32,419 bases of DNA from assembly GCA_007119395.1 (NCBI GenBank), contig SKPS01000153.1, positions 1 to 32,419 of the forward strand, written 5' to 3'. Each line of letters opens with the position of its first letter. The stretch's first letter is position 1. The notes below the pieces were generated by a model that ran no database searches, was not told the origin of the DNA, and saw nothing but the letters and a program-made list of their open reading frames with translations. This DNA comes from Lentimicrobiaceae bacterium (GTDB lineage: Bacteria; Bacteroidota; Bacteroidia; Bacteroidales; SKPS01). This document shows, piece after piece, positions 2,046 through 31,010 of the stretch. A program made the position numbers and the translations under genes.

Positions 2046-3262
2046 TCGGTCAGCCCGTTTTTGGTCACAATGCTCAGGGTGTCACGCGCAATCACCAGCT
2101 CCTCATTGGTGGTGATCACCATGGCTGTTTTGGCCGAACCGGGCCTGGTGAGAATCTCATCCTTGCCGCGCATTCCATGATTCTTCTGTGTGTCAAAGTC
2201 AATGCCCAGGTATGTAAGCCCTGTGGCTACCTTCTCACGTACCCCTGAATCGTTTTCTCCAATACCACCGGTAAAAATCAACAGGTCTACACCATCCATC
2301 ACCGCGGCATAAGCACCTACATACTTTTTCACCCGATGGCAATACATATCTTGTGCAAGCGTTGCCTGTGGATCTGCTTCCTTCTCAATGGCCGTCTCAA
2401 TGTCACGCATATCATAGGAAATACCATAGATACCCAGTACTCCGCTCTTTTTGTTGAACAGATTGTTCACCTCCTGAATGGAGAGGTTCTCTTTTTCCAT
2501 CAGATAGAGCACAACCCCGATATCGAGGTCACCGGTACGGGTACCCATCATCAACCCTTCAATGGGGGTAAAGCCCATGGACGTCTCAACAGATTTCCCT
2601 TTGTCAATGGCAGCAACCGATGCTCCATTGCCAAGGTGGCAGGTGATAATCTTTAACTCCTCCCAGTTTTTCCCAAGGATATCGCATGCTTTCTGGGCTA
2701 CGAATTTATGGCTGGTTCCGTGGAAACCATAACGGCGGATGTTGTACTTTTCGTAATACTCGTAAGGAATGCCATAGAGATAGGCATGTTTTGGCATGGT
2801 CTGGTGGAAGGATGTGTCGAACACAGCTACCTGAGGCACTTCCGGAAGAATTTCATCGATGGAGAGGATCCCTTTAAGGTTAGCCGGATTGTGTAATGGA
2901 GCCAGCTCACAACACTTTTCAATGTCTTGTTTGACCCGTTCGTTCACGCGAACGCTGCTCTTGAAGTTTTCACCACCATGAGCTACACGATGACCTACCG
3001 CTGTGATTTCCTCCTTGGCTTTAATGACGCCTTGTACAGGGTGGACAAGGATTTCCAGGATGAGGTTGATACCTGTTTGGTGATCGGGAATATCTTTCAC
3101 CATGTTGAACTTGTCGCGGTTCTTTGCCCTGTGGTTCAGTTCAGCGCAATTCATGCCAATTCTTTCCACGATCCCTTTGGCAAGCAAATCTGCTTCGTGC
3201 GACATATCGATCAATTGGTACTTGATAGAAGAGCTGCCACAATTCAGTACTAAGATTTTCAT
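2042..3262 (-). CDS. ackA: Acetate kinase
   Basis: Motifs [44 protein letters not shown] and TNEEL. Confidence 0.97.
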
Positions 3263-3306
3263 TTTTTCTGTTTAGGTTTACTGATATAATTTTGTGAAGG
3301 ATTGTT

Positions 3307-4311
3307 TTATTTTCCGGCGGCTTGGTTTGCCGTGATGGCAACTAAGTTTACGATATCGTCAACGGAACACCCTCTGGAGAGGTCGTTGATGGGTGCTGCC
3401 ATCCCTTGCAGTACGGGGCCTACAGCCTCTGCACCTGCAAGGCGTTGCACCAGTTTATAGGCGATATTTCCCACTTCCAGGGTGGGGAATACCAGCACAT
3501 TGGCTTTTCCGGCAATCTGGCTCTCGGGGGCTTTGCTTTTTCCAATTTTTTCCACGATCGCTGCATCAGCTTGCATCTCGCCATCAATCAGCAGATCGGG
3601 CGCCATTTCGCGTGCTATTTTTGTTGCTTCCACCACTTTGTCAACCATGGGATGGGAAGCGCTGCCCTTGGTGCTGAAACTCAGCATGGCAACCCTGGGC
3701 TCAATACCTGCAATGGCCTGTGCTGTACGTGCTGTGCTTACAGCAATCTGCGCCAGCTCGTCAGCCGTAGGATCAGGATGAACAGCACAGTCGGCAAAAA
3801 CCAGGATGCCCTGCTCACCCCATTGGGCATCGGGAAGTATCATGATAAACGCCCCTGATACCACACTGATGCCGGGGAGTGTTTTTACAATTTGAAATGC
3901 CGGCCTTAAAACATTGCCTGTGGCATTGGCAGCACCTGCTACTTCACCATCAGCATCACCGTTCTTGATCAACAGGGTGGCCAGATACAAAGGATCCTCC
4001 ACCTGCTGCAAGGCAACCTCACGTGTCATCCCCTTCTCCTTGCGTATGCCGTACAGCATGTCAGCATAAAACTCCTTCTTCGGATGATCTGCAGGGTCAA
4101 TGATCTCTGCAAGATGGATATGTGCCAAACCATGTGCCGCTGCCAAACCGTGAATCTCATCACGGTTACCCAGCAAAATAATCCGGGCAATCCCCTCGCC
4201 CAAGATAATATCAGCCGCTTTTAAGGTGCGTTCTTCTGTGCCTTCGGGTAATACAATACGTTTGTTTTGTGATGTTGCCCGCTCTCTGATGTCTTTTAAT
4301 AATTTGATCAT
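3307..4311 (-). CDS. pta: Phosphate acetyltransferase (short form)
   Basis: Motifs [39 protein letters not shown] and NDLSRGCS; directly upstream of ackA. Confidence 0.97.
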
Positions 4312-4437
4312 ATCTCTTGTGTTTTATCAACCGACTGTCGGCTGCACACAAGAAGAGGTTCAGCGCGATGGCCGGGGGTGAAAAGAATCAATCTTTCAAT
4401 AAGTTGCGACATGCTGCCACAACACTCAATCGCACGG

Positions 4438-4445
4438 CAAAAATA
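4438..4445 (-). promoter_or_regulatory. -7 promoter box (TATTTTTG) for pta-ackA
   Basis: The + strand CAAAAATA reads TAnnTTTG on the minus strand. It lies just downstream of the terminator at 4490-4553 and gives a leader of about 120 nt. Confidence 0.6.
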
Positions 4446-4489
4446 GGCTGATTCTATGAATGTTCCTAATGAATTGAGGGATAAATTTC

Positions 4490-4553
4490 AAAAAAAAACA
4501 CCGGACACCGGCTGCACCCATTGAAAGGGGTGGCTTGAAGCCGGTGTCCGGTG
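4490..4553 (-). terminator. Intrinsic terminator of the GIN/beta-barrel gene
   Basis: Perfect 15-bp inverted repeat CACCGGACACCGGCT (4499-4513) / AGCCGGTGTCCGGTG (4539-4553). The adjacent A-run at 4490-4498 is a U-tract on the minus strand. Confidence 0.85.
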
Positions 4554-4589
4554 GCAATCACTGTGGTTTTGCCACTTATGATGTGTTGA

Positions 4590-6014
4590 TTAATTGAACC
4601 CGGTGAGCACAATGCCGAACGATGCAGCATAGACCTCCGGTCCTTTGTCTTTCTCGAAGAAGGGTAGCAGATTGTATTCGGCGAAAAAGTTGAGTCTGCC
4701 AAAGCCAATTCTGCCGGCTGCAGCTACACGGTAAGGGTTGAGATTGTACCTGTCTCGGGTCCGCTCACGAATGGTGGCACCGCCATCAGAATACTTCACC
4801 CGGGCAGAAGTACCCAAACGCAGTCCGAGGTTTACACCACCGGCAATATGAAATCGCTGACGGACAGGCCCTTTATTGGTCTGGAACTCCAGCATAAACG
4901 GAACCTTCAGGTAGGTTGCAGTTAGCTTGTTGCGCGATAGTTCAATGTCGTCGGAATGGTGCTGTATTACGGTTTTGCCATCCTTTTTTGCCAACCTGAT
5001 ATTCTCTTCAAAATGGTAGTTGTTGAACTCAAAGCCCATACCTGTAACGATGCCGAACTGCTGACGGATCAAAGGCAGATTGGTTTGAAGCAGGTTTACA
5101 TTCCATACCCGTGATGAAGGGATGTTCAGTGCAAGGGATTTGGCCTCCCCTTCAAGATTGAAACTCCCTTTGGAGGTCATAAACGTATTGATACCCAGTT
5201 CAAAACCCTCAAAATGACCATTAAATTTTCCTCTGCCCGACTCTCTGGTTTTTCTCGCTTCTTTTACCACTTCACGCACTTCCATCTCTTTGGCTTCACC
5301 TTCTATGGTCACGTCAATGGTTTCGTTCAACACCTGACTCAGACCGGAGGCCATGGAGGTTACATTCACTTCGTTGATGACAGGCTCTGAAACAAACACT
5401 ACCGAAGCCATGCCTGATACTCTGCCCTCAACCTTCTCTGTGACATTGAGCCTGCCTAATGTAGCACCTGTAAGTCTGATAGATGCCCGATTGATAACCA
5501 GACTATCGAAACGGGCCTGAGAAGCTCCGCCCAGCTCCAAAGTTAGGATCTCAGCAGTGCCCGATACAGTGGCTGTGGCAGCCCCCGTAAGCTTGGCTGT
5601 AAGGTCGGTGCTAACAATTGACATCGTTACGGTTGCAGCCCCTTTCGACTCTAAATGAAATGTGTCAGCAACAAAAGTGCCGATGCCAAGTGCTGTGGAC
5701 GCATCCTGAACTACAAGATGTTCCAGCGAAGGTGTGGTGATGCGCACCAACGCATCGTTGTCGCCACGCGCCGATAACCTTAACGACCCGTCTTGAACAG
5801 CACCTACCACTACACTTTTGCGGTCAGCCTCAGTCCCTTCCACTTGAAGCAAATATGACGAACCCTGGTGTAGCTCAACATTCAATGTGCCGGCAATGGT
5901 CAAACGACTAAATGGTGATACCTCATGCTCCTGCATATCCACCTGTGCGTAACTGGCAGTACCTATCAGTGTGAATAGCAATGAAACGATTAAAAATCTT
6001 ACTGTTGTTTTCAT
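4590..6014 (-). CDS. Exported protein: DUF2807/GIN (autotransporter-adhesin-head-like) domain fused to an outer-membrane beta-barrel
   Basis: Signal peptide ending ASYA-Q. GIN-like start (FSRLTIAGTLNVELHQG) with repeated xxGAx beta-helix rungs (KGAA, TGAA, GGAS, TGAT, SGMA). C-terminal GHFEGFELG...YLKVPFMLEF...RIGFG...NFFAEY is typical of Bacteroidota OMP barrels. Confidence 0.75.
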   Translation of the reverse strand: MKTTVRFLIVSLLFTLIGTASYAQVDMQEHEVSPFSRLTIAGTLNVELHQGSSYLLQVEGTEADRKSVVVGAVQDGSLRLSARGDNDALVRITTPSLEHLVVQDASTALGIGTFVADTFHLESKGAATVTMSIVSTDLTAKLTGAATATVSGTAEILTLELGGASQARFDSLVINRASIRLTGATLGRLNVTEKVEGRVSGMASVVFVSEPVINEVNVTSMASGLSQVLNETIDVTIEGEAKEMEVREVVKEARKTRESGRGKFNGHFEGFELGINTFMTSKGSFNLEGEAKSLALNIPSSRVWNVNLLQTNLPLIRQQFGIVTGMGFEFNNYHFEENIRLAKKDGKTVIQHHSDDIELSRNKLTATYLKVPFMLEFQTNKGPVRQRFHIAGGVNLGLRLGTSARVKYSDGGATIRERTRDRYNLNPYRVAAAGRIGFGRLNFFAEYNLLPFFEKDKGPEVYAASFGIVLTGFN

Positions 6015-6099
6015 CTTTGTTGTTTTTTTGTTGATTTATTTTCTCCTGAACGGATTCTAATTTTTCCGTGATAACCTGTTTTGTTTTTGTCGATGGTAT

Positions 6100-6125
6100 G
6101 ACGGAGAAAGATCTTTTTTGTTACA
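6100..6125 (-). promoter_or_regulatory. Putative ECF sigma-factor promoter TGTAAC-N16-CGTC
   Basis: Minus strand reads TGTAAC aaaaaagatctttctc CGTC, the classic ECF AAC/CGT layout with a 16-nt spacer, about 85 nt upstream of the ATG at 6014. Confidence 0.6.
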
Positions 6126-6202
6126 GGAGATGAAAAAAAAATGAAGATTGGTGAAAAAATGAGGAGTATAGCCTCTTTGGTTATGTTGATTTTCCTTGGG
6201 CA

Positions 6203-6258
6203 ATAAAAGAATCGGGATGTGTTTGGGTAGTGTTTAAACCACTCACTCACATCCCGAT
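6203..6258 (-). terminator. Intrinsic terminator of the carboxyltransferase gene
   Basis: 11-bp inverted repeat ATCGGGATGTG (6211-6221) / CACATCCCGAT (6248-6258), followed on the minus strand by TCTTTTATT. Confidence 0.75.
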
Positions 6259-6350
6259 CAATGCCAGCCGTGTTTCAATATTGTTTGCAGTCCATGATCA
6301 CAAAACAGGCAATAGGTGTACTACCGTTTATGCCCCTGCAATCAGTGCAG

Positions 6351-8057
6351 TTAATCGTCGGTGCTCCAGTTATAACTGTAAAGGCCATCCAGCAGACGTT
6401 TCTTTTTCTCTTCATCAGAGAGCTTGTCGAAGGCTGCCTTTTCGGCGAGATGAGCTTCCACTTTCTTCATCTCTTCCTCATGAATCATTGCCCTGTACTC
6501 GCTCTCTTTCAGTTCTTGCAGGAACGTGGTGGCTACCTGAGGGAAAAGATCAAGCAACAACTCCTCTTTTTCGTTCTCTGCAAGTAACCTGTCACCGGCC
6601 TGATCCAGTTCGGGGTTTTCTGGCTTCTTGTAATTGTCAACGTTATAAGGGGTCTCTTCTCTGACACCACAAATCATCTCCCTGAAGTCGGGATCTATCT
6701 CTATGGGTGTTTTCCCATATTCACCTTTGACCAGGCTTACAAACTGATTGTTTTTGGTGGTGTAGGGCTTCTGCTTTTTGTTTTCGTCGATAACATAATT
6801 AACGGCCTGAACACCAACAATTTGAGAGGTTGGGGTTACCAATGGGGGGCACCCTGCAGCCAGTCGCACCACTGGTACCACTTCAAGAACCCTTGACATG
6901 AGATGATCGAGCTTGAGTTGTTTGAGCTGTGATATCATGTTGGTGTACATTCCACCGGGTATTTCTGCTTTTTTTACCTCTTCGTTGGGTTCGGGCAGGC
7001 CAAACCAACGTTCAATTGCCTGGGTAGCTTCCAGCAGCTTCTCTTCGTCATTTTTTCCGGCAAATTCTATTGCCTGGTCGAACAGTTGGTCTATTTCCGG
7101 GGGCAGTGTGTCTTTGGTAAGATCGAAGGTGCGGGGCAATTCGTAGTTGTCAATGTCTCCCATCTCTTTGCGGATCTCGCCGAGTTGTTCGTTGATGGTA
7201 GCGATCACGTTAACATTCACGCCGGTATCAACGCCCAATTTATTGCAGAAGAGTTGTATTATTTCGAATGATGGGGCAGCGGGGCCTCCGCTGAAGTTAA
7301 GGATGGATGTGTCAACGATATCTACTCCATTCATGATGGCCACCAGAGTGGATGCCAATCCGTAGCCGGGCGTACAGTGGGTGTGAAAGTCGATCGGGAT
7401 TTTCAGTTCCGCTTTCATTCTGGAGATGATTTTGGCTGCCTGACGCGGAGGAACGAGGCCTGCCATGTCTTTGATGGTGATCATATCGGCACCCATTGCT
7501 TCCAGCTCTTTGGCTTTGTTGACAAAGTAATCGGTTCGGAAGATTCTGCGGGGCACCTTTTTCATCTGCCAGAAGGCTTTTGCTCTTTCGCGCAGTGTGA
7601 ATTTGGGGTCAATGGTGTAACAGACACAACAGTCGGCAATACCTCCATTCTCTTTCACATATCCAATAGTTGACCGGATATTGCTGGTGTCATTGAGTGC
7701 ATCAAATATTCGCATGATGGAAATGCCTGATTGCACTGCATGACGGTTGAACCCCTCAATTACGCTTTCGGGATATGGATTGTATCCAAAGAGGTTTCTG
7801 CCTCGGGATAAGGCGGTTAGTTTGCTGACGCTTCCCACTTCACGATGAATGCTTTCGAGCCGGTGCCAGGGGTTCTCCTTCAGGAACCGCATAATGGCAT
7901 CCGGTACTGCGCCACCCCATACTTCCATGGCATAAAATCCTGCTTCCTTATAATAGGGCAACACACGGTCAACCTGATTCTGATTCATTCTGGTGGCAAA
8001 CAACGACTGCTGCCCATCCCTCAGTGTCAAATCCCTTATTTTTAATGTTTTGTTCAT
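6351..8057 (-). CDS. Pyruvate/oxaloacetate carboxyltransferase (OadA / pyruvate carboxylase B / transcarboxylase 5S family) lacking a biotinyl domain
   Basis: Motifs RDLTLRDGQQSL, EVWGGA, IKDMAG, HTH, IPGGM and PPLVTPTSQIVG; no AMKM biotin domain. ATG at 8057 preferred over the TTG at 8087. Confidence 0.9.
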   Translation of the reverse strand: MNKTLKIRDLTLRDGQQSLFATRMNQNQVDRVLPYYKEAGFYAMEVWGGAVPDAIMRFLKENPWHRLESIHREVGSVSKLTALSRGRNLFGYNPYPESVIEGFNRHAVQSGISIMRIFDALNDTSNIRSTIGYVKENGGIADCCVCYTIDPKFTLRERAKAFWQMKKVPRRIFRTDYFVNKAKELEAMGADMITIKDMAGLVPPRQAAKIISRMKAELKIPIDFHTHCTPGYGLASTLVAIMNGVDIVDTSILNFSGGPAAPSFEIIQLFCNKLGVDTGVNVNVIATINEQLGEIRKEMGDIDNYELPRTFDLTKDTLPPEIDQLFDQAIEFAGKNDEEKLLEATQAIERWFGLPEPNEEVKKAEIPGGMYTNMISQLKQLKLDHLMSRVLEVVPVVRLAAGCPPLVTPTSQIVGVQAVNYVIDENKKQKPYTTKNNQFVSLVKGEYGKTPIEIDPDFREMICGVREETPYNVDNYKKPENPELDQAGDRLLAENEKEELLLDLFPQVATTFLQELKESEYRAMIHEEEMKKVEAHLAEKAAFDKLSDEEKKKRLLDGLYSYNWSTDD

Positions 8058-23122: not shown

Positions 23123-24682
23123 TTATAGAGGGATGTTACAATGCTTTCTCGGAGGGTTGGTGTCTTTTTTGGTTGCCAGTGCCTGCAGTGCTCTGATGAC
23201 CCTGAAGCGGGTGTTTCGGGGCTCAATGACATCGTCAATATATCCGAATTTGGCAGCCTCATAAGGGTTGGCAAACTTGTCTTTGTACTCTTGTTCTTTC
23301 TCAGCGATGAATCGTTTTTTCTCCTCTTCATCGGTTATCTCAGCCAACTCTCTACTTCTGAGCACCTCAATGGCACCTTTGGGTCCCATAACTGCAATCT
23401 CAGCAGAAGGCCAAGCATAATTGATGTCACCTCGTAACTGTTTGCTGCTCATTACATCGTGAGCACCACCATATGATTTCCTCAGGGTGATGGTCACCTT
23501 TGGTACCGTTGCCTCACCATAGGCAAACATCAGTTTGGCTCCATGAAGAATGATGCCACCGTACTCCTGTTGGGTGCCGGGAAGGAAACCGGGTACATCT
23601 ACCATCGTGACCAATGGTATATTGAAGGCATCGCAAAATCTTACAAAGCGTGCTGCCTTACGTGATGCATCAATATCTAGCACACCTGCCAGGTAGCTGG
23701 GCTGATTGGCCACAACGCCCACAGGCATTCCATCAAACTTGGCAAAACCAGTTACAATGTTTTTGGCATAATGACGATGCACTTCCAGAAACTCGTTGTC
23801 ATCTACTACAGCGTAGATAATGTCTTTTACGTCGTACGGTTTATTGGGGTCTGAAGGGATAAAATAATTCAGTGAGTCTTCCAGTCTGTCGATGGGGTCG
23901 TTGCACTGTACCATGGGTGGGTCTTCCAGGTTATTGGAAGGCAGGTACGAGAGCAGCTTGCGAATCATCATCAGCCCCTCTTCTTCTGTTTCAGAGATAA
24001 AGTGGCTAACACCTGATTTGGCGGCATGCACATGAGCCCCACCCAGTTCGTCAACCGTAACCACTTCGCCGGTTACTGTTTTCACCACCTTAGGGCCTGT
24101 AACAAACATGTAACTGTTGCGCTCACTCATCAGGATGAAATCAGTAAGGGCAGGTGAGTAAACAGCTCCTCCGGCACATGGGCCGAAGATAGCAGAGATC
24201 TGTGGTATCACACCGGATGCATTGATGTTGCGCTGAAAGATCTCGGCATAACCCGCCAGGCTTTTCACACCTTCCTGGATTCGTGCACCACCACTGTCGT
24301 TCAAACCAATCACCGGAGCACCTACTTTCATGGCCTGGTCCATCACCTTGCAGATCTTTTTGGCATATGCCTCTGACAGGGATCCACCGAAAACAGTGAA
24401 ATCCTGTGAGTAAACATACACAATACGACCATCAATGGTACCATAACCAGTTACTACACCATCAGACAAAATACGTTGCTTTTCCAACCCAAAATCGTGG
24501 GAGGTGTGGGTGACAAACATGTCAAACTCCTCAAAACTTCCTTCGTCTAACAGAATTTCAATACGCTCACGGGCTGTGAGTTTGCCCTTTTTATGCTGTG
24601 ATTCAATTCTGGCTATTCCACCACCGAGCCTCGCTTGCTCGCGCCTCGCCATGAGGTCCTTAATTTTGTCTTCTATCGCCAT
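23123..24682 (-). CDS. mmdA: Methylmalonyl-CoA decarboxylase alpha / acyl-CoA carboxyltransferase subunit
   Basis: Motifs [51 protein letters not shown] and KHCNIPL; lies between the epimerase and the membrane subunits. Confidence 0.9.
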
Positions 24683-24703
24683 TTTGATCAATATCTGTAT
24701 GGG

Positions 24704-25123
24704 TTATTCCTTTACTTTCTTGTCTTCGCAAAACTCAGTCAACACACCAAATGTGCTTTTCGGATGTAAAAAGGCAATATCGAGCCCTTCAGCTCCGCGA
24801 CGGGGCACGGAGTCAATCAGTGAGACCCCATGCTCTTTGGCAGCCTCTAGGCATTGCTCTATCCCTTTCACTGCAAACGCTATATGATGAACTCCCTGGC
24901 CACGCTTCTCGATGAATTTTCCAACCGGACCCTCAGGATCTGTAGACTCAAGCAACTCTATCTTGGTGTCACCCACCTTGAAAAAAGCTGTGCGAACCCG
25001 CTGATCCTTCACCTCTTCAATCGCATAGCAGGTGAGACCCAATACCTTCTCGTAATAGGCTATGGCAGCATCCATGTCCTTTACCGCAATCCCAATGTGT
25101 TCAATGTGCGTTGGCTTCATCAT
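24704..25123 (-). CDS. mce: Methylmalonyl-CoA epimerase
   Basis: VOC-fold motifs HIEHIGIAV, IELLE, GVHHIAF and AFLHPKSTFGVLTE. Confidence 0.95.
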   Translation of the reverse strand: MMKPTHIEHIGIAVKDMDAAIAYYEKVLGLTCYAIEEVKDQRVRTAFFKVGDTKIELLESTDPEGPVGKFIEKRGQGVHHIAFAVKGIEQCLEAAKEHGVSLIDSVPRRGAEGLDIAFLHPKSTFGVLTEFCEDKKVKE

Positions 25124-25354: not shown

Positions 25355-26065
25355 CTATACAATGGTTTTTACCCTGTTTCTCTCCTGAATGTATTGTTCA
25401 TATTTCCCTTCAAAGCGGATTCTCGCAGCCACTACAGTATCAAACTGTTTCAGGCTGGCAATCAGCAATTCACACACCTCCCTCAGCGCCATATTTCCCC
25501 CTGTAGAGCCGGTGATATAATCAGCCAAACGGTGTTCCAATACATATCGTCTGGTAAGGGGAGCTGCCGGCTGGTTAAAAAACAGCCTCAGCCCGCACCG
25601 CTGAGCCAAGGTGAAATCAATGATGTCATCAAAAAAAAATGCTGTCTCTTCCGGTACCACTGCATGGTCACGTGACAGAACAGAAAGCGCTTCATCCTTA
25701 CGCTTCACACCTGTCATTACCATATTAAAGTGCTCACGGGTTGCAAACTGCTTCGCTGTTTTATTGTCAGCACCCGACACGATCGCAGTAATGGGCATCT
25801 CCCCCTTGTTTTGTAGCCAGATGGCAAAACGGAGCATGTTCACCCCCATTGAGTCAGCCTCCGTGAAGCCACTTCCGTCGAGATGGGTCTTATGGCCATT
25901 GTTGAATACACCGTCCCAGTCGAATACCAAAGCCCTGACACGCGCTAAACGCCCGGCAAATGATGCATACCCCTCAGGAAACTCACCCCCCAACTCTTTG
26001 AAAGGGGTGATGAGCGCGCTGTCAAACCCAGGCTGTTGTTGTGGATCGTGATGCATGTTGTTCAC
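25355..26065 (-). CDS. KdsC-like HAD phosphatase (divergent)
   Basis: HAD motif I FDWDGV, motif II IVSG, K/DD motifs (KRK...FDDIID) and GGNMALREVCELL resembling the KdsC GG.GA.RE tail. GTGA overlap with the upstream gene; alternative ATG at 26056. Confidence 0.8.
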   Translation of the reverse strand: MNNMHHDPQQQPGFDSALITPFKELGGEFPEGYASFAGRLARVRALVFDWDGVFNNGHKTHLDGSGFTEADSMGVNMLRFAIWLQNKGEMPITAIVSGADNKTAKQFATREHFNMVMTGVKRKDEALSVLSRDHAVVPEETAFFFDDIIDFTLAQRCGLRLFFNQPAAPLTRRYVLEHRLADYITGSTGGNMALREVCELLIASLKQFDTVVAARIRFEGKYEQYIQERNRVKTIV

Positions 26066-27084
26066 GGCCTGCCGTTTTTAAAGAGATCATGGATGTCCAT
26101 GATGCCGATTGGCTTACCATCTTTGGTAACCACAATGTTATCGATTTTCTTTTTCCTGAACAACAATGAAGCATTGTGCAGTGACTCCTCTGCATCGATG
26201 CAGACAGGTGTTTTCACGGGCATGGTATCGAGCTTTTTACGAAGAATTCCTTCCCCTTGTTGCTCAAGCATTCTACGCAGGTCTCCATCGGTGAAGATTC
26301 CTATCAGTGCTCCGTTGTCGTCTGTGATGCTGACGGCGCCAAACTGTGAAGTGGTCATAATGACCAGTGCATCCAGGATGGTTTTATGATGGCTTATGGT
26401 GGAGGGTGCATCTGAGATCACCTGGTGAACCTTAAGGGTGATGAGTCTGGTGTGCTCAAAGAACTGCTGTGTGCCAATGTCGGTGAAATGGTTTTTGAAC
26501 AATTGCTTCATCACCTTCCAGGGAATGGTACAGGCATGTACGCCAAGGTTCAATGCGTTGCGAACGTGTTCTGAATGCCTGACGGATGAGAACATAATTT
26601 TCGAAGGATATCGGTACCTGTCGGTGATCTCAACACATTGCCTGATGAGCCCCAGTGCGTCGTGCCCTTCGTCCTGCAATCGGCCTACCAATGGGCACAC
26701 ATAGGTGGCCCCTGCCGACAACGCCATATAGGCCTGCTGAATCGTATAGACTAGATGTACGTTCACCATCAGCCCTTGATCAATCAACTGCCTGCACGCC
26801 TTTATGCCGTCGGTGCTGACAGGGATTTTAAAGACTGTTCGTGACGGGTCGAGGCCCAATCCGATCAAACGATGCGCTTCAGAACAGATCTCCTCAGCAT
26901 CTTCTCCCAGTGCTTCCACCTGCAAAACAGGCACCCTGGTGGAGAGCTGAAGAATGGTGCTGTTGATGTCTGTGATACCATCACGGTGCATAAAAGTTGG
27001 TGTGGTGGTAAGCCCCGCAAGGATGCCCAATGACGCGGCCTCTTCAATCTCTTCAATATTGGCTGAATCAAGGTATAATTCCAT
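26062..27084 (-). CDS. Transaldolase/fructose-6-phosphate-aldolase family barrel fused to a C-terminal KdsD/KpsF-type CBS pair
   Basis: Residues 1-212: MELYLDSA, GLTTTPT, VFKIP (Schiff-base Lys86), AGATYVCPLVGRL, SSVR and CTIP. Residues ~214-340: LIGIFTDGDLRR and GIMDIHDL. Start placed at ATG 27084. Confidence 0.88.
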   Translation of the reverse strand: MELYLDSANIEEIEEAASLGILAGLTTTPTFMHRDGITDINSTILQLSTRVPVLQVEALGEDAEEICSEAHRLIGLGLDPSRTVFKIPVSTDGIKACRQLIDQGLMVNVHLVYTIQQAYMALSAGATYVCPLVGRLQDEGHDALGLIRQCVEITDRYRYPSKIMFSSVRHSEHVRNALNLGVHACTIPWKVMKQLFKNHFTDIGTQQFFEHTRLITLKVHQVISDAPSTISHHKTILDALVIMTTSQFGAVSITDDNGALIGIFTDGDLRRMLEQQGEGILRKKLDTMPVKTPVCIDAEESLHNASLLFRKKKIDNIVVTKDGKPIGIMDIHDLFKNGRP

Positions 27085-27964
27085 GTTCGTTTTTGTATTG
27101 GTTGATCGTGTTATGTATCTCAAGCAGTGGTTTTAAAAACATTTCCAAGTGTTGGGTATGCATTTGGCTTGCTGCATCGCACAACGCTTTGTCTGGTGCT
27201 GTGTGGGTTTCAATGAAAAGTCCGTCAATGCCTGCTGCCACGGCACTTCGTGCCAGTACACTCAAATATTCACGGGAACCGCCGGCTGGGTTGGAGCTTG
27301 GAATTCCATATCGTCTTACTGAATGTGTAACATCAAATACCACCGGGCATCCGGTTCGTTGCAGATGGTAAAAGCTCCGTGGATCAACCACCAGGTCGTT
27401 GTAACCAAAAGAGTAACCTCGCTCGGTTACCAGGATATTTCTGTTCCCTGCAGCCTCCACCTTGGCAACAGGCTTCAACATCTGTTCCGGTGCCAGAAAC
27501 TGACCTCGTTTGATGTTGACGACCTTGTTCGTTGAGGCCACCTTTTCCAATAGCTCGGTCTGCATGCATAGGTAGGCTGGTATTTGCAATACATCCAATA
27601 CAGCTGCCGCCTCATCAACGTGTTCGGGATAGTGCACATCCGATAACACAGGGAAGCCAAAATCGCCTCTGATCCGTTCCAGAATCCGCAACCCTTTTTC
27701 AAGCCCGGGGCCACGGTAGTAATTGGCAACACTGCGGTTGTCTTTGAGGAAAGAGGATTTGAAAATCACAGGTATGTTTAATCTGGCTGAAATACCTGCC
27801 AGTTGCTCAGCTACCTGCATCATAAGAGGCTCCTCTTCAATCACACAAGGGCCTGAAATTAAAAAGAGGGGAGGTGCTCCGCATACCAAGTCACCTATCA
27901 CCACCTGATGCTTTGTGCGTGACAGGTGACGATCGATTGGCCTAAGGTTGTTTTTCGTAGTCAT
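27068..27964 (-). CDS. kdsA: 3-deoxy-8-phosphooctulonate (KDO8P) synthase-like, non-canonical motifs
   Basis: Motifs GPCVIE, RGPG, SDVH, QIPA, GQF, ERG.SFGYNDLVVD, FDVTHSV and GLFIETH..P..ALCD. Start placed at ATG 27964. Confidence 0.85.
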   Translation of the reverse strand: MTTKNNLRPIDRHLSRTKHQVVIGDLVCGAPPLFLISGPCVIEEEPLMMQVAEQLAGISARLNIPVIFKSSFLKDNRSVANYYRGPGLEKGLRILERIRGDFGFPVLSDVHYPEHVDEAAAVLDVLQIPAYLCMQTELLEKVASTNKVVNIKRGQFLAPEQMLKPVAKVEAAGNRNILVTERGYSFGYNDLVVDPRSFYHLQRTGCPVVFDVTHSVRRYGIPSSNPAGGSREYLSVLARSAVAAGIDGLFIETHTAPDKALCDAASQMHTQHLEMFLKPLLEIHNTINQYKNEHGIIP

Positions 27965-27978
27965 ATCTGCATTGCTGG

Positions 27979-29787
27979 TTAAAAACTGATTTCCCAAACT
28001 ACCTCTTCCTCCCAGTTGGCTCGCAAAGAGACGGCACTGGGGATCACCTTCACTTTTTCGGGTTGTATTCTTTTCCAATAGTCACCGGTATCCCACCTGC
28101 CATTGCCATTGCTGTCGAGAATCGCTTTCAGGTAGTACTGTCCGGCAGGCAGGTATGGGAAAGTGATGGCCCCATCCTCAGAGAGGTTGCCACGGGTTAT
28201 CTCATTCATTCTTTCATCTGTGAGCAGCACAATCACTGAGGTTGCCTGCTCACCTTCCAATCCTGAAATCAACGTAAGGGTTCCAAAGTCTTCGCTGCGT
28301 GCCGGTGTAAAATGATAGCGGATGGTATCGTTGTTTGTGCCATCCCAGCCTGTAATCATTCCGGCGGGAATCATCAGGGTATACTCTGTGCCCTGTTCCA
28401 GGGTATTGGTAATTGCGAAGCGTATGGGTACCAGGGAGTCGATCACCTGAAGCTGCAGCGGGATAGTGTCTTCAGAAGTGGAGAGTGTGCTGCTGGTCAG
28501 GTCTATATGGCTCAATGGTGACGAGAAGGTAATGATGGGGTCACGTGCTGGCCTCAAAGAGCCACCGCGAGGCACATTCATCGACAGGGTGGTGGTGGGT
28601 TCCCGTAACCTGGTTCGGCCGGTACCGGTGGGCTGCCGAAGAGCAGTCCGCAGCGTGTCTGCGAAATAGGGTGTGTCAACAATAGCAAGCGGCAATGCTT
28701 CAAAGGTGTGTTGCTGTAACCATACCCACAAGGTGTCACGACCGGGCGTTAATTGCCATAGCATGATGGAGTCGAGACCCGGCTCAGGAGAAAAGATGTC
28801 AGGTTGCTGAACCGGATAACGGAATGCTACATACGCTTTGTTCCTGCCGTCTGATCGCGATGTAACCACTCTTTGGACACTGTCCTCTCCAACGAACATA
28901 CGCAATACAAAAGGTTCAGAATGTGTGGTGACTGTGTCTGTTCCATTTTCTGTGAGCGTATCCAATGTTGATTCATCGGTGGTGATAACAGCCGAGAGTG
29001 TATCGGAGAGCCCGGCGTTGCTCAAGGTGTCAGGATCGTCCGGTGGAGGCGACGGCATCCGCCATGGTCTCACAGGCTCGCTGTGAAAGGCCACCCCTTC
29101 GGTGAGGAGGTCGTAACGCATGTTGTTGTTCAGGTCAGCCAAGGCAAACAAATGATACAGCGTGTCAGCAATGTGTTGAAATTCAAAATGGCCGTTTTGG
29201 TCAGGGCGCGTAACATACCGCGGCTTCTCCAGGGCCACGGCTGAATCGCTCATGGGGAGCTTGTAGAGCATCACCAGGATGTTCTCTTCAACCTCCTGAT
29301 CCCACGCATTGAACACCCTCCCTTTAATGGTGTGCTGATCGATCTGCGGACCGGTTGAAAAGTAATAGGTATATGGTGGCAGCGGGTTCCCTTCGGTGAT
29401 GTCTTTGATGGCATCACCAAAGAAAAAGGCATAGGTTGCATTGGAGATTAAAGTGTCATGGAACCTGATGGTAAGATTTCTGCCACGAAGTCTTATCTCT
29501 ACCGGATTAGCAAGAGGTGGTGAAACGAGGAGCTGTTGCTGCAGGTTTCCGGTTTGAATGAACTCACTAAAGCGCAATGTAAAGCTGTTCTCTGTGAAAT
29601 CGACACCACCGGAGGGGGGTGTCTCCAGGATCACTTCCGGCGGAGTGGTATCACGCGGGCCACCCGTGGGAGATACAATGTTAGCACAACCGGCAGTCAA
29701 CAATGCAAGCAGATAGATGATCCCCCTTTTCGGCACGGCCGAAGTGATCTTGTGTCGCAGGTTCTGCATTATACAAAGTTCTTTCAT
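27979..29787 (-). CDS. Lipoprotein with Ig-like (Big_5/SbsA-like) domains
   Basis: Lipobox LTAG-C followed by ANIVSPTGGPRDTTPP and FSEFI; DxNxN-type loops; C-terminal ANWE. Confidence 0.8.
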   Translation of the reverse strand: MKELCIMQNLRHKITSAVPKRGIIYLLALLTAGCANIVSPTGGPRDTTPPEVILETPPSGGVDFTENSFTLRFSEFIQTGNLQQQLLVSPPLANPVEIRLRGRNLTIRFHDTLISNATYAFFFGDAIKDITEGNPLPPYTYYFSTGPQIDQHTIKGRVFNAWDQEVEENILVMLYKLPMSDSAVALEKPRYVTRPDQNGHFEFQHIADTLYHLFALADLNNNMRYDLLTEGVAFHSEPVRPWRMPSPPPDDPDTLSNAGLSDTLSAVITTDESTLDTLTENGTDTVTTHSEPFVLRMFVGEDSVQRVVTSRSDGRNKAYVAFRYPVQQPDIFSPEPGLDSIMLWQLTPGRDTLWVWLQQHTFEALPLAIVDTPYFADTLRTALRQPTGTGRTRLREPTTTLSMNVPRGGSLRPARDPIITFSSPLSHIDLTSSTLSTSEDTIPLQLQVIDSLVPIRFAITNTLEQGTEYTLMIPAGMITGWDGTNNDTIRYHFTPARSEDFGTLTLISGLEGEQATSVIVLLTDERMNEITRGNLSEDGAITFPYLPAGQYYLKAILDSNGNGRWDTGDYWKRIQPEKVKVIPSAVSLRANWEEEVVWEISF

Positions 29788-31010
29788 AGTTTGAATTCTA
29801 CTACATCAGGTGACAACCGTCGTACCGGCAGCCAGGCAGCCAGCAAACCAATGGTCATCACCGAGAAAAATATCAGCACAAAATCAGCCCAATGAATCTT
29901 TACGGGATAAGTATCGAAAACCAGGGTATCCGCTACCCCAATGCCAATGAGACCAAACTGTTGCTGTATCCAGGCCAGCAACCCTCCGATAAAAAGGCCC
30001 GTGACAACACCCACGAAAGAGATCTGTAGCCCCTCGAGTAAAAAGATTCTGCGGATGATGCGGTTGCTGGCTCCCATTGCCTGCAAAATGGCGATGTCTT
30101 TCTTTTTCTCCAGAATCAGCATTGTAAGAGACCCGACAACGTTGAAGATGGCCAGTAACAGAATAAAAGAGAGGATGGCAAAGATCGCCCATTTCTCTGA
30201 TCGTATGATTCTGTATAAAAGCTCCTGTTGCTCAAACCGGTCTTGAATCACATATTTCTCTCCCATCAATTGCTGCAACTGCTCTTTGATTCGACGTGTT
30301 GATGCGTTGGGCTTCAGGCCGAGTTCCAGTGAAGTGATTTCGTTGTCGTATGCCATCAGGTCACGCATAAGGTCTATGGGTACCAAAACATACCGGTTGT
30401 CGATCTCTTGTTGCACGGAAAACACCCCTGATGGCCACATCTCTCTGGTGGTGAAAGCCGAAAGTCTGTCGCCGGGTGAAGCAAACCGGTTGGCCATGTA
30501 CACCTCTACGGGGTGTTCAGCCACATCGATGATGGCACCCAGCCTGAAAGCAACACCCGATCCAAAGACTGCACGCGGCATCCTTCCGGGTGCCACCACA
30601 AAGTTGCCCGCATAGACCATGGTGTCCAACCCTGTCATCTCATCGTAATAACCGCTAACACCTTTTAGTGTTGCCAAATGCTGCTTTTCACGGAAACGCA
30701 ATAAAGCGTTCTCTTCGATCACCTCATGGTAATGAACAATCCCTTCCACACCTCTGATCTCCTGAGCCATATATTCGTCGATCTCAAAGGTCTTCCCTTC
30801 AGCAGCCGTAACCCTGATGTCAGGGTGAAAAGCATTGAACAGAGAAAGCACCACCCCTTCAAATCCATTAAAAACAGACAATACCAAAATAAACGCCATG
30901 CTGCCACCCATCACCCCAATGGCCGAAATCGCAGAAATCAGGTTGATGGCATTGTGCTTCTTTTTTGAAAGGAGGTAACGCCTGGCTATATATAATGGAA
31001 AGAGATTCAT
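29784..31010 (-). CDS. LolC/E-like (FtsX/MacB family) ABC transporter permease
   Basis: Motifs IARRYL, VLSVFNGF, large periplasmic domain, EKKKDIAILQAMGA...IRRIFLLEG and YPV; ATGA overlap with rbfA. Confidence 0.88.
   Translation of the reverse strand: MNLFPLYIARRYLLSKKKHNAINLISAISAIGVMGGSMAFILVLSVFNGFEGVVLSLFNAFHPDIRVTAAEGKTFEIDEYMAQEIRGVEGIVHYHEVIEENALLRFREKQHLATLKGVSGYYDEMTGLDTMVYAGNFVVAPGRMPRAVFGSGVAFRLGAIIDVAEHPVEVYMANRFASPGDRLSAFTTREMWPSGVFSVQQEIDNRYVLVPIDLMRDLMAYDNEITSLELGLKPNASTRRIKEQLQQLMGEKYVIQDRFEQQELLYRIIRSEKWAIFAILSFILLLAIFNVVGSLTMLILEKKKDIAILQAMGASNRIIRRIFLLEGLQISFVGVVTGLFIGGLLAWIQQQFGLIGIGVADTLVFDTYPVKIHWADFVLIFFSVMTIGLLAAWLPVRRLSPDVVEFKL

Follow-up and report, generated by a model that had tools for sequence, protein, structure and literature searches.

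A gene on the minus strand of contig SKPS01000153.1 from a Lentimicrobiaceae bacterium (Bacteroidota; GenBank assembly GCA_007119395.1) encodes a 340-residue protein, here termed P0001, in which a transaldolase-fold barrel with a rewired active site is fused to a pair of CBS domains of the type carried by KdsD, KpsF and GutQ. The gene lies among Kdo genes within the 32,419-nucleotide stretch of DNA analysed here (the window); its intact relatives and the classical SIS-type isomerases exclude one another among the Bacteroidia genomes surveyed, and these relatives share a conserved active-site signature. We consider it fairly probable that the fusion supplies D-arabinose 5-phosphate (A5P) to KdsA for the synthesis of Kdo and lipopolysaccharide, and that it does so by proton transfer and not by aldol chemistry. 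This assignment draws on gene context, on distribution and on residue roles borrowed from homologues. Arabinose-5-phosphate isomerase catalyses the first committed step towards Kdo, which most Gram-negative bacteria need for their lipopolysaccharide, and is a studied drug target.

The fusion protein and its kds neighbours

The open reading frame (26062-27123, minus strand) opens at a TTG, and the starts of homologous proteins match the ATG at 27084 (M1 is invariant). The features referred to below are as follows, in window coordinates.

26062..27084 (-), fusion gene, rewired transaldolase/FSA-like barrel plus CBS pair (340 residues and stop; P0001)
26449..27084 (-), barrel domain, residues 1 to about 212 (Foldseek and NCBIfam)
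27001..27003 (-), T28 (codon ACA), in place of Asn, in certain lineages only
26827..26829 (-), K86 (codon AAA), the Schiff-base lysine position; aligns with the catalytic Lys of strand 4
26755..26757 (-), H110 (codon CAT), in place of the Thr of transaldolases and FSA
26695..26697 (-), C130, in place of Ser (Ala in FSA), by alignment
26689..26691 (-), L132, in place of Phe (transaldolase) or Tyr (FSA), by alignment
26578..26682 (-), stretch with the retained phosphate-site residues R135 (26680-26682), S167 (26584-26586) and R169 (26578-26580)
26071..26436 (-), CBS pair, residues about 217-338 (NCBIfam and PDB matches)
27068..28078 (-), kdsA (Kdo-8-phosphate synthase), open from 28078 with a likely start at ATG 27964 (NCBIfam NF003543, 341.8 bits; cut-off 242)
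25355..26065 (-), divergent kdsC-like HAD phosphatase (NCBIfam KdsC, 53 bits; below the cut-off of 208)

Pfam recognises a TAL_FSA domain over residues 3-201 of P0001 (E = 6.9e-35), followed by two CBS domains (E = 1e-16), and the score against PF00923 (121.2 bits; gathering cut-off 27) places the protein within that superfamily. The AlphaFold2 model (mean pLDDT 91.6) was compared with solved structures using Foldseek, and the barrel superimposes on 1vpx, 3r8r and 3s0c with TM-scores (by target) of 0.92-0.95 and root-mean-square deviations of 1.3-1.4 Å, which is the (β/α)8 transaldolase fold. Nevertheless, P0001 stays below the cut-offs of all NCBIfam equivalog models for transaldolases and FSA: the best of them is fsa_talC_mipB (TIGR00875; 171.1 bits, cut-off 245.95), followed by NF009299 (94.6; 214), TIGR02134 (66.5; 281.95) and TIGR00874 (48.4; 396.2). 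The CBS region points elsewhere. Its top NCBIfam matches are KpsF, KdsD and GutQ (E = 3.9e-14 to 1.8e-13), ahead of all other CBS families, and its closest PDB entries are the CBS domains of arabinose-5-phosphate isomerases (4o9k, E = 6.9e-14; 3fna; 3k2v). P0001 thus has the C-terminal CBS pair of the KdsD/KpsF/GutQ enzymes. Their N-terminal SIS domain (TIGR00393, NF008141) was not found in it, only model positions 154-267, which belong to the CBS part, being matched (52.9 bits; cut-off 203.7).

The gene order agrees with the affinity of the CBS pair. kdsA lies directly upstream on the same strand, its last 17 bases overlapping the start of the fusion gene, and on the other side the GTG start of the kdsC-like gene overlaps the TGA stop of the fusion (GTGA), an alternative ATG start being located 9 bases later. 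Across two sets of loci, the second of which takes in loci from metagenome-assembled genomes (MAGs) of Desulfobacterales and Gammaproteobacteria, kdsA is found directly upstream of the fusion at 5 of 11 and 18 of 22 loci, respectively, and a kdsC-like gene directly downstream at 10 of 11 and 10 of 22. A metagenome contig (L050) provides an unfused example, a protein of 207 residues with the same active-site signature, whose gene is flanked by a kdsB-methyltransferase fusion and by kdsA. Taken together, the KdsD-type CBS pair and the kds neighbours mean that the fusion is built and placed like KdsD, except that the rewired barrel stands where KdsD has its SIS domain, and the Kdo context identifies A5P as its likely product. 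The sequence-only reading of this DNA, which had drawn attention to the rewired active site, covered residues 1-169 only, and therefore missed the CBS pair, the adjacent genes and the link to Kdo.

With KdsD, KpsF and GutQ the fusion has in common the type and C-terminal position of the CBS pair, a length of about 320-340 residues, placement with kdsA and kdsC and the same phyletic slot, and probably also the product, A5P. It differs from them in having a transaldolase-fold barrel and no SIS catalytic domain. For this reason it is not a member of the KdsD family, and its catalytic residues and mechanism cannot be those of KdsD. Although P0001 has more than 4000 relatives, their public labels are limited to 'transaldolase family protein' or 'CBS domain-containing protein', and none of the 13 ESM Atlas clusters with the architecture of the fusion is named an isomerase. 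Full-text literature searches, which did not extend to subscription journals or supplementary files, found no transaldolase-CBS protein described as a source of A5P.

Conservation and distribution of the rewired barrel

We aligned P0001 with the solved small transaldolases 3r8r, 1vpx and 1wx0 using HMMER. Residues D6, E57, K86, N108, R135, S167 and R169 align with their canonical counterparts, whereas three motifs are altered: TTTP stands for TTNP, NVHLVY for NVTL(I/V)F and YVCPLVGR for YVSPF(L/V)GR. The substitutions N28T, T110H, S130C and F132L, together with the seven retained residues, had been proposed without any alignment to solved structures, and all were confirmed, as were their codon positions. 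P0001 therefore possesses the Schiff-base lysine of the PF00923 superfamily (K86), whereas the Thr110, Phe/Tyr132 and Asn28 of functional transaldolases and FSA are represented by His, Leu and Thr. We take Thr110 to be the residue that holds the catalytic water, and Phe132 and Tyr132 to be the transaldolase and FSA states of one position; the titles of PDB variant entries (E60Q/F132Y and Q59E) fit these roles and point to the residue pair as a known transaldolase/FSA switch. Literature searches returned nothing on residue numbering in the T. acidophilum transaldolase.

The closest structural relatives are thus the small (subfamily 4/5) transaldolases of B. subtilis (3r8r), T. maritima (1vpx) and T. 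acidophilum (3s0c), with which the barrel shares its fold, 33-38% sequence identity, Lys86, Asp6, the Glu, Asn108 and the Arg/Ser/Arg phosphate site. Unlike these enzymes, the fusions have His for Thr110, Cys for Ser130 and Leu for Phe132, with Asn28 unconstrained; they carry a CBS pair, occur in a Kdo context and coexist with a true transaldolase. The fold is likewise shared with FSA (E. coli, 1l6w), from which the fusion is more distant (22-25% identity, 53 bits) and which has Gln59 and Tyr131 where the fusion has Glu57 and Leu132.

The altered residues are strongly conserved. Among 137 full-length fusions retrieved and aligned, K86, H110 and L132 are each present in 133, C130 in 131 and T28 in 127 (N in 9). 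The combination K86/H110/C130/L132 is also found in the representatives of 50%-identity clusters, down to 29-45% identity, and in unfused forms of about 215 residues. When 23 representatives of the subfamily were compared with 60 canonical ones (50%-identity clusters, the groups being defined by His or Thr at residue 110), positions 110, 132 and 130 were the three strongest discriminators. Position 110, used for the grouping itself, is H in 23/23 and T in 60/60, and position 132 is F in 90% of the canonical representatives. Position 28 behaves differently: it is N in 59/59 canonical sequences and divided within the subfamily (N in 13, T in 10), and therefore appears from the alignment to be lineage-specific and not defining. 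In a tree of 98 barrels (a quick, unrooted search) all H110 forms, along with the degenerate fusions derived from them, are separated from canonical sequences by a branch with 98% SH-aLRT support, and fused and unfused rewired barrels interleave.

The same picture was obtained from genomes. Of 34 fusions from species-representative genomes, 31 match P0001 at all eleven residues checked, while the remaining three (G100, G134 and G191, of one family) are degenerate, with K86 replaced by R and H110 lost. In a second set of named genomes, which may share species with the first, all 22 fusions are intact and retain K86. T28 is present in all 31 intact fusions of the first set and in 22/22 of the second. 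The signature being invariant in 31/34 and 22/22 genomic copies, an interpretation of these genes as decaying or as pseudogenes was ruled out. The sequence-only reading had named random variation among homologues as the observation that would speak against a rewired active site; no such variation was seen at positions 110, 130 and 132, and of the four positions whose invariance it proposed to check only T28 lies outside the conserved signature. Judged by its sequences, the group forms a conserved subfamily of its own among the small transaldolase/FSA barrels, which keeps K86, D6, E57, N108 and R135/S167/R169 and adds H110, C130 and L132.

We then considered how these proteins are distributed with respect to other candidates for the A5P step. 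Two hundred Bacteroidia genomes, at least 90% complete, were searched with three queries: P0001, the kpsF model and a third type of protein, in which a ribulose-phosphate-3-epimerase-like (RPE-like) barrel is fused to a CBS pair. An SIS-type isomerase is present in 123 of them (115 above the kpsF cut-off, 2 of full length just below it and 6 single-SIS-domain forms); two unpublished genomes, G088 and G166, are included in this number, which without them is 121 of 198. Intact transaldolase-CBS fusions occur in 31 genomes, full-length RPE-like-CBS proteins in 38 and a shorter RPE-like form in 5 (G017, G164 and the three genomes with degenerate fusions). Three genomes have none of these: G008, two congeners of which carry the fusion, and two symbionts with genomes of 0.5 Mb. 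The SIS-type, intact-fusion, RPE-like and empty classes do not overlap, so that the intact barrel occurs only where no other candidate exists. No SIS-type match to the kpsF model was detected in the 31 intact-fusion genomes; what this model matches best in all 34 fusion genomes is the CBS pair of the fusion itself. Neither an SIS-type isomerase nor a transaldolase fusion was found in the 38 genomes with a full-length RPE-like-CBS protein, and the three degenerate fusions are confined to genomes that match the RPE-like query.

Beyond this sample, five further fusion genomes were inspected, and an SIS-type match is missing from all of them; they comprise a Desulfobacteraceae MAG, the isolate Plebeiibacterium marinum D04 and three gammaproteobacterial genomes, of which one is a closed chromosome of 4.7 Mb. 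The source genome itself (86% complete, 372 contigs) contains kdsB, and no kpsF-type gene was found in it. Its only SIS matches are a 590-residue frame with two SIS domains on contig C22, which we read as GlmS-like, and a GmhA-like gene on C311 (E = 2e-67 on sedoheptulose-7-phosphate isomerase models, below their cut-offs) located beside nucleotidyltransferase and HAD genes; a hidden SIS-type isomerase was rejected on these grounds. An unfused rewired barrel was sought in genomes with neither SIS-type isomerase nor fusion, and none was seen, the small transaldolases examined there being canonical (N28/T110/S130/F132) in 20 of 20 cases; what this comparison brought to light was the RPE-like-CBS fusion. 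Six genomes from the order of the source genome (G027, G070, G106, G140, G170 and G197) carry no fusion and no transaldolase-family match better than E = 1e-8; they use a single-SIS-domain isomerase in four cases and a full KpsF in the other two. At the same time, copies with the full signature and 50-59% identity are found in Gammaproteobacteria and Desulfobacterota. The absence of the fusion from these six genomes, together with the occurrence of such copies, suggests that the kdsA-fusion pair has spread horizontally.

Possible chemistry and competing explanations

In the mechanism that we propose, the rewired barrel would take the place of KdsD's SIS catalytic domain on the KdsD-type CBS pair, and would act on a pentose 5-phosphate by proton transfer rather than by carbon-carbon cleavage. 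Cys130 and His110 would serve as new acid/base residues around C1/C2, and the loss of the aromatic residue at 132, along with the relaxation of N28, may have switched aldol chemistry off. There are precedents, albeit in unrelated folds and by analogy only: the ribose-5-phosphate isomerase RpiB uses a Cys base with a His for proton transfer on a pentose phosphate, and the L-ribulose-5-phosphate 4-epimerase AraD is an epimerase derived from an aldolase fold. Position 130 corresponds to the A129 site of FSA, near C1 of the donor, where a Ser hydrogen-bonds the C1 hydroxyl (excerpt of PMC3962088), and Cys130 would accordingly adjoin C1/C2 of the bound sugar.

Two schemes can be envisaged. Ribulose 5-phosphate could be isomerised to A5P through an enediol, with an electrostatic role for K86; alternatively, ribose 5-phosphate could be epimerised at C2 on a C1 iminium formed with K86, by means of a two-base pair. 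On chemical reasoning, a ketose Schiff base would lead to a dead-end Heyns/Amadori amine and so could not serve isomerisation, while an aldose 5-phosphate attached to K86 by its C1 would bring its phosphate to the R135/S167/R169 site that has been kept. E. coli FsaA is reported to bind A5P and to cleave it with a KM of 0.65 mM (excerpt of PMC6900487), in keeping with the structure of A5P, a fructose 6-phosphate that lacks C1. That the barrel is a Schiff-base pentose-5-phosphate 2-epimerase, in which H110 and C130 invert C2 as two bases and convert ribose 5-phosphate directly into A5P, is a tentative proposal to which we grant a minority chance. Should it prove true, Kdo would be reached by a route not known so far, and the transaldolase fold would have its first reaction outside aldol chemistry; moreover, three unrelated units (SIS, transaldolase-like and RPE-like) would have replaced one another on a single CBS module at this pathway step.

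Several observations weigh against a proton-transferring source of A5P, or against parts of the argument for it. A plain enediol isomerase would need neither K86 nor D6, E57 and N108, yet all four are kept, and the geometry suggests that ribulose 5-phosphate bound via C2 would have its phosphate one carbon short of the retained site. Two metagenome contigs (L046 and L048, about 2930-6650) carry the operon kdsB-kdsA-kdsC-small transaldolase-kdsD, the last gene being of the SIS type and followed by further genes; a transaldolase-like gene can thus be located in a kds cluster that still has its KdsD. The RPE-like class adjoins a DAHP-synthase-like gene and not canonical kdsA, so that it may not be strictly equivalent to the other two. 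Genomes among the 200 are related to one another, which inflates the counts, and these are therefore not counts of independent events. As for the source genome, WaaA (PF04413) was not found in the 86% complete assembly, and at this completeness its lack of kdsD and of another transaldolase is, taken alone, weak evidence.

Other explanations stay closer to known chemistry. An FSA-like aldolase could form A5P from glycolaldehyde and glyceraldehyde 3-phosphate on a K86 Schiff base: excerpts of PMC6900487 and PMC13550131 describe this reaction, in reversible form, for E. coli FsaA, and K86, D6, E57 and N108 are all in place, while A5P, as fructose 6-phosphate minus C1, would fit the retained phosphate site. 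We nonetheless regard such an activity as unlikely. The C4 oxyanion formed by FSA in its aldol step is stabilised by the side chain of N28, replacement of which abolished activity (excerpt of PMC6099348), whereas this residue is T in the 31 intact genomic fusions and in 22/22 named-genome fusions; the acid/base Tyr of FSA is replaced by Leu. Moreover, the RPE-like barrel, which acts on ribulose 5-phosphate and has no lysine Schiff base, fills the same phyletic slot, and this favours proton transfer over condensation with glycolaldehyde. Glycolaldehyde is not a central metabolite, and it is difficult to see how lipopolysaccharide synthesis could be steadily provided with it. An ordinary transaldolase of the pentose phosphate pathway that has gained a regulatory CBS pair would account for the Pfam TAL_FSA match, the fold and the public annotation as 'transaldolase family protein', and the fusion is indeed the only PF00923 match in the source genome and in G003. 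This explanation is very improbable. A separate small transaldolase is encoded in 33 of the 34 fusion genomes (30 of the 31 with an intact fusion) and scores higher against PF00923 (179-210 bits) than the intact fusions (108-128) or the three degenerate ones (43-85), so that a housekeeping role was rejected; in addition, no intact member retains T110 or F132, P0001 falls short of every equivalog cut-off, and neither the kds context nor the mutual exclusion with KdsD would be explained.

It could also be argued that the fusion handles another sugar phosphate of a Kdo-related branch, such as a variant precursor, or that its role is regulatory or that of a scaffold, A5P being provided by an unrecognised enzyme. 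Members without K86 do persist as open frames (P0126, P0128, P0129 and P0147; G100, G134 and G191), and the kdsC-like neighbour is very divergent. Against this, which we hold to be quite improbable, stand the confinement of degenerate forms to genomes where the RPE-like system is present, the invariance of the intact active site over 11 positions in 31/34 and 22/22 genomes, and the identity of the direct neighbour, a canonical kdsA above its cut-off. Supply of A5P by proton transfer thus remains the reading that we prefer. The sequence-only suggestion that the new His and Cys might act in isomerisation or epimerisation of a pentose phosphate is strengthened by the kdsA/kdsC-like context, the KdsD-type CBS pair and the exclusion of SIS-type enzymes; N28T no longer belongs to the signature on which it was built, and the chemistry itself is what we infer.

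If A5P is indeed made in this way, about one in six of the sampled Bacteroidia (31/200), as well as some Gammaproteobacteria and Desulfobacterota, would make it with an annotated 'transaldolase', and current pathway reconstructions for these organisms would wrongly show the kdsD step as missing and wrongly count one transaldolase too many. It would be a new job for the transaldolase fold, and probably new chemistry for it: a natural class I aldolase/transaldolase barrel turned to proton transfer by three substitutions around its Schiff-base lysine.

RPE-like and degenerate fusions and other neighbouring genes

The RPE-like proteins constitute a second look-alike of KdsD, with a barrel related to ribulose-phosphate 3-epimerase and a KdsD-type CBS pair in about 335 residues (L043:180-1184 from G011, L040:2475-3479 from G097, and L041 and L042). 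Next to their gene, on its downstream side, come first a DAHP-synthase-like gene (NF006421, 359.9 bits; cut-off 335), then one for a kdsC-like phosphatase; in the five such genomes checked, no canonical kdsA above the cut-off was found. Such a parallel case suggests that the CBS pair can pass from one catalytic unit to another as a regulatory module of the A5P step. The shorter form of the RPE-like protein in G100, G134 and G191 is 307-310 residues long, and the operon of RPE-like, DAHP-synthase-like and kdsC-like genes was seen in G100 and in G017.

Degenerate fusions lacking K86, H110, C130 and most other active-site residues are located at L073:2998-4005 (G100), L074:2995-3996 (G134) and L075:3001-4008 (G191), all of them in open frames, as are the proteins P0126, P0128, P0129 and P0147. 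At all three loci they are accompanied by a gene for a protein of 570-583 residues and a partial gene of 395-416 residues, and no kds genes are adjacent.

Two variants were noted on the metagenome contigs. The kdsB-methyltransferase fusion that immediately precedes the unfused rewired barrel and kdsA (L050:3481-4992) encodes 504 residues, comprising a kdsB-like cytidylyltransferase and a class I methyltransferase. In the small transaldolase from the operon of L046 and L048, two positions are changed (N108T and S130C), while T110 and F132 are as in canonical forms; this combination recurs in P0189 and P0203, whereas P0173 and P0220 have V or A instead of T at position 108.

In the window, the genes past the kds cluster (23123-25123, minus strand), which encode a glyoxalase-fold protein (methylmalonyl-CoA-epimerase-like by Pfam) and a 522-residue open reading frame, look like ordinary metabolism. 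Upstream of kdsA on the same strand (27979-31010) are genes for a 602-residue Big_5 (bacterial Ig-like) protein with a lipoprotein-like N-terminus and for an FtsX/MacB-type permease, both of which may be co-transcribed with the kds genes.

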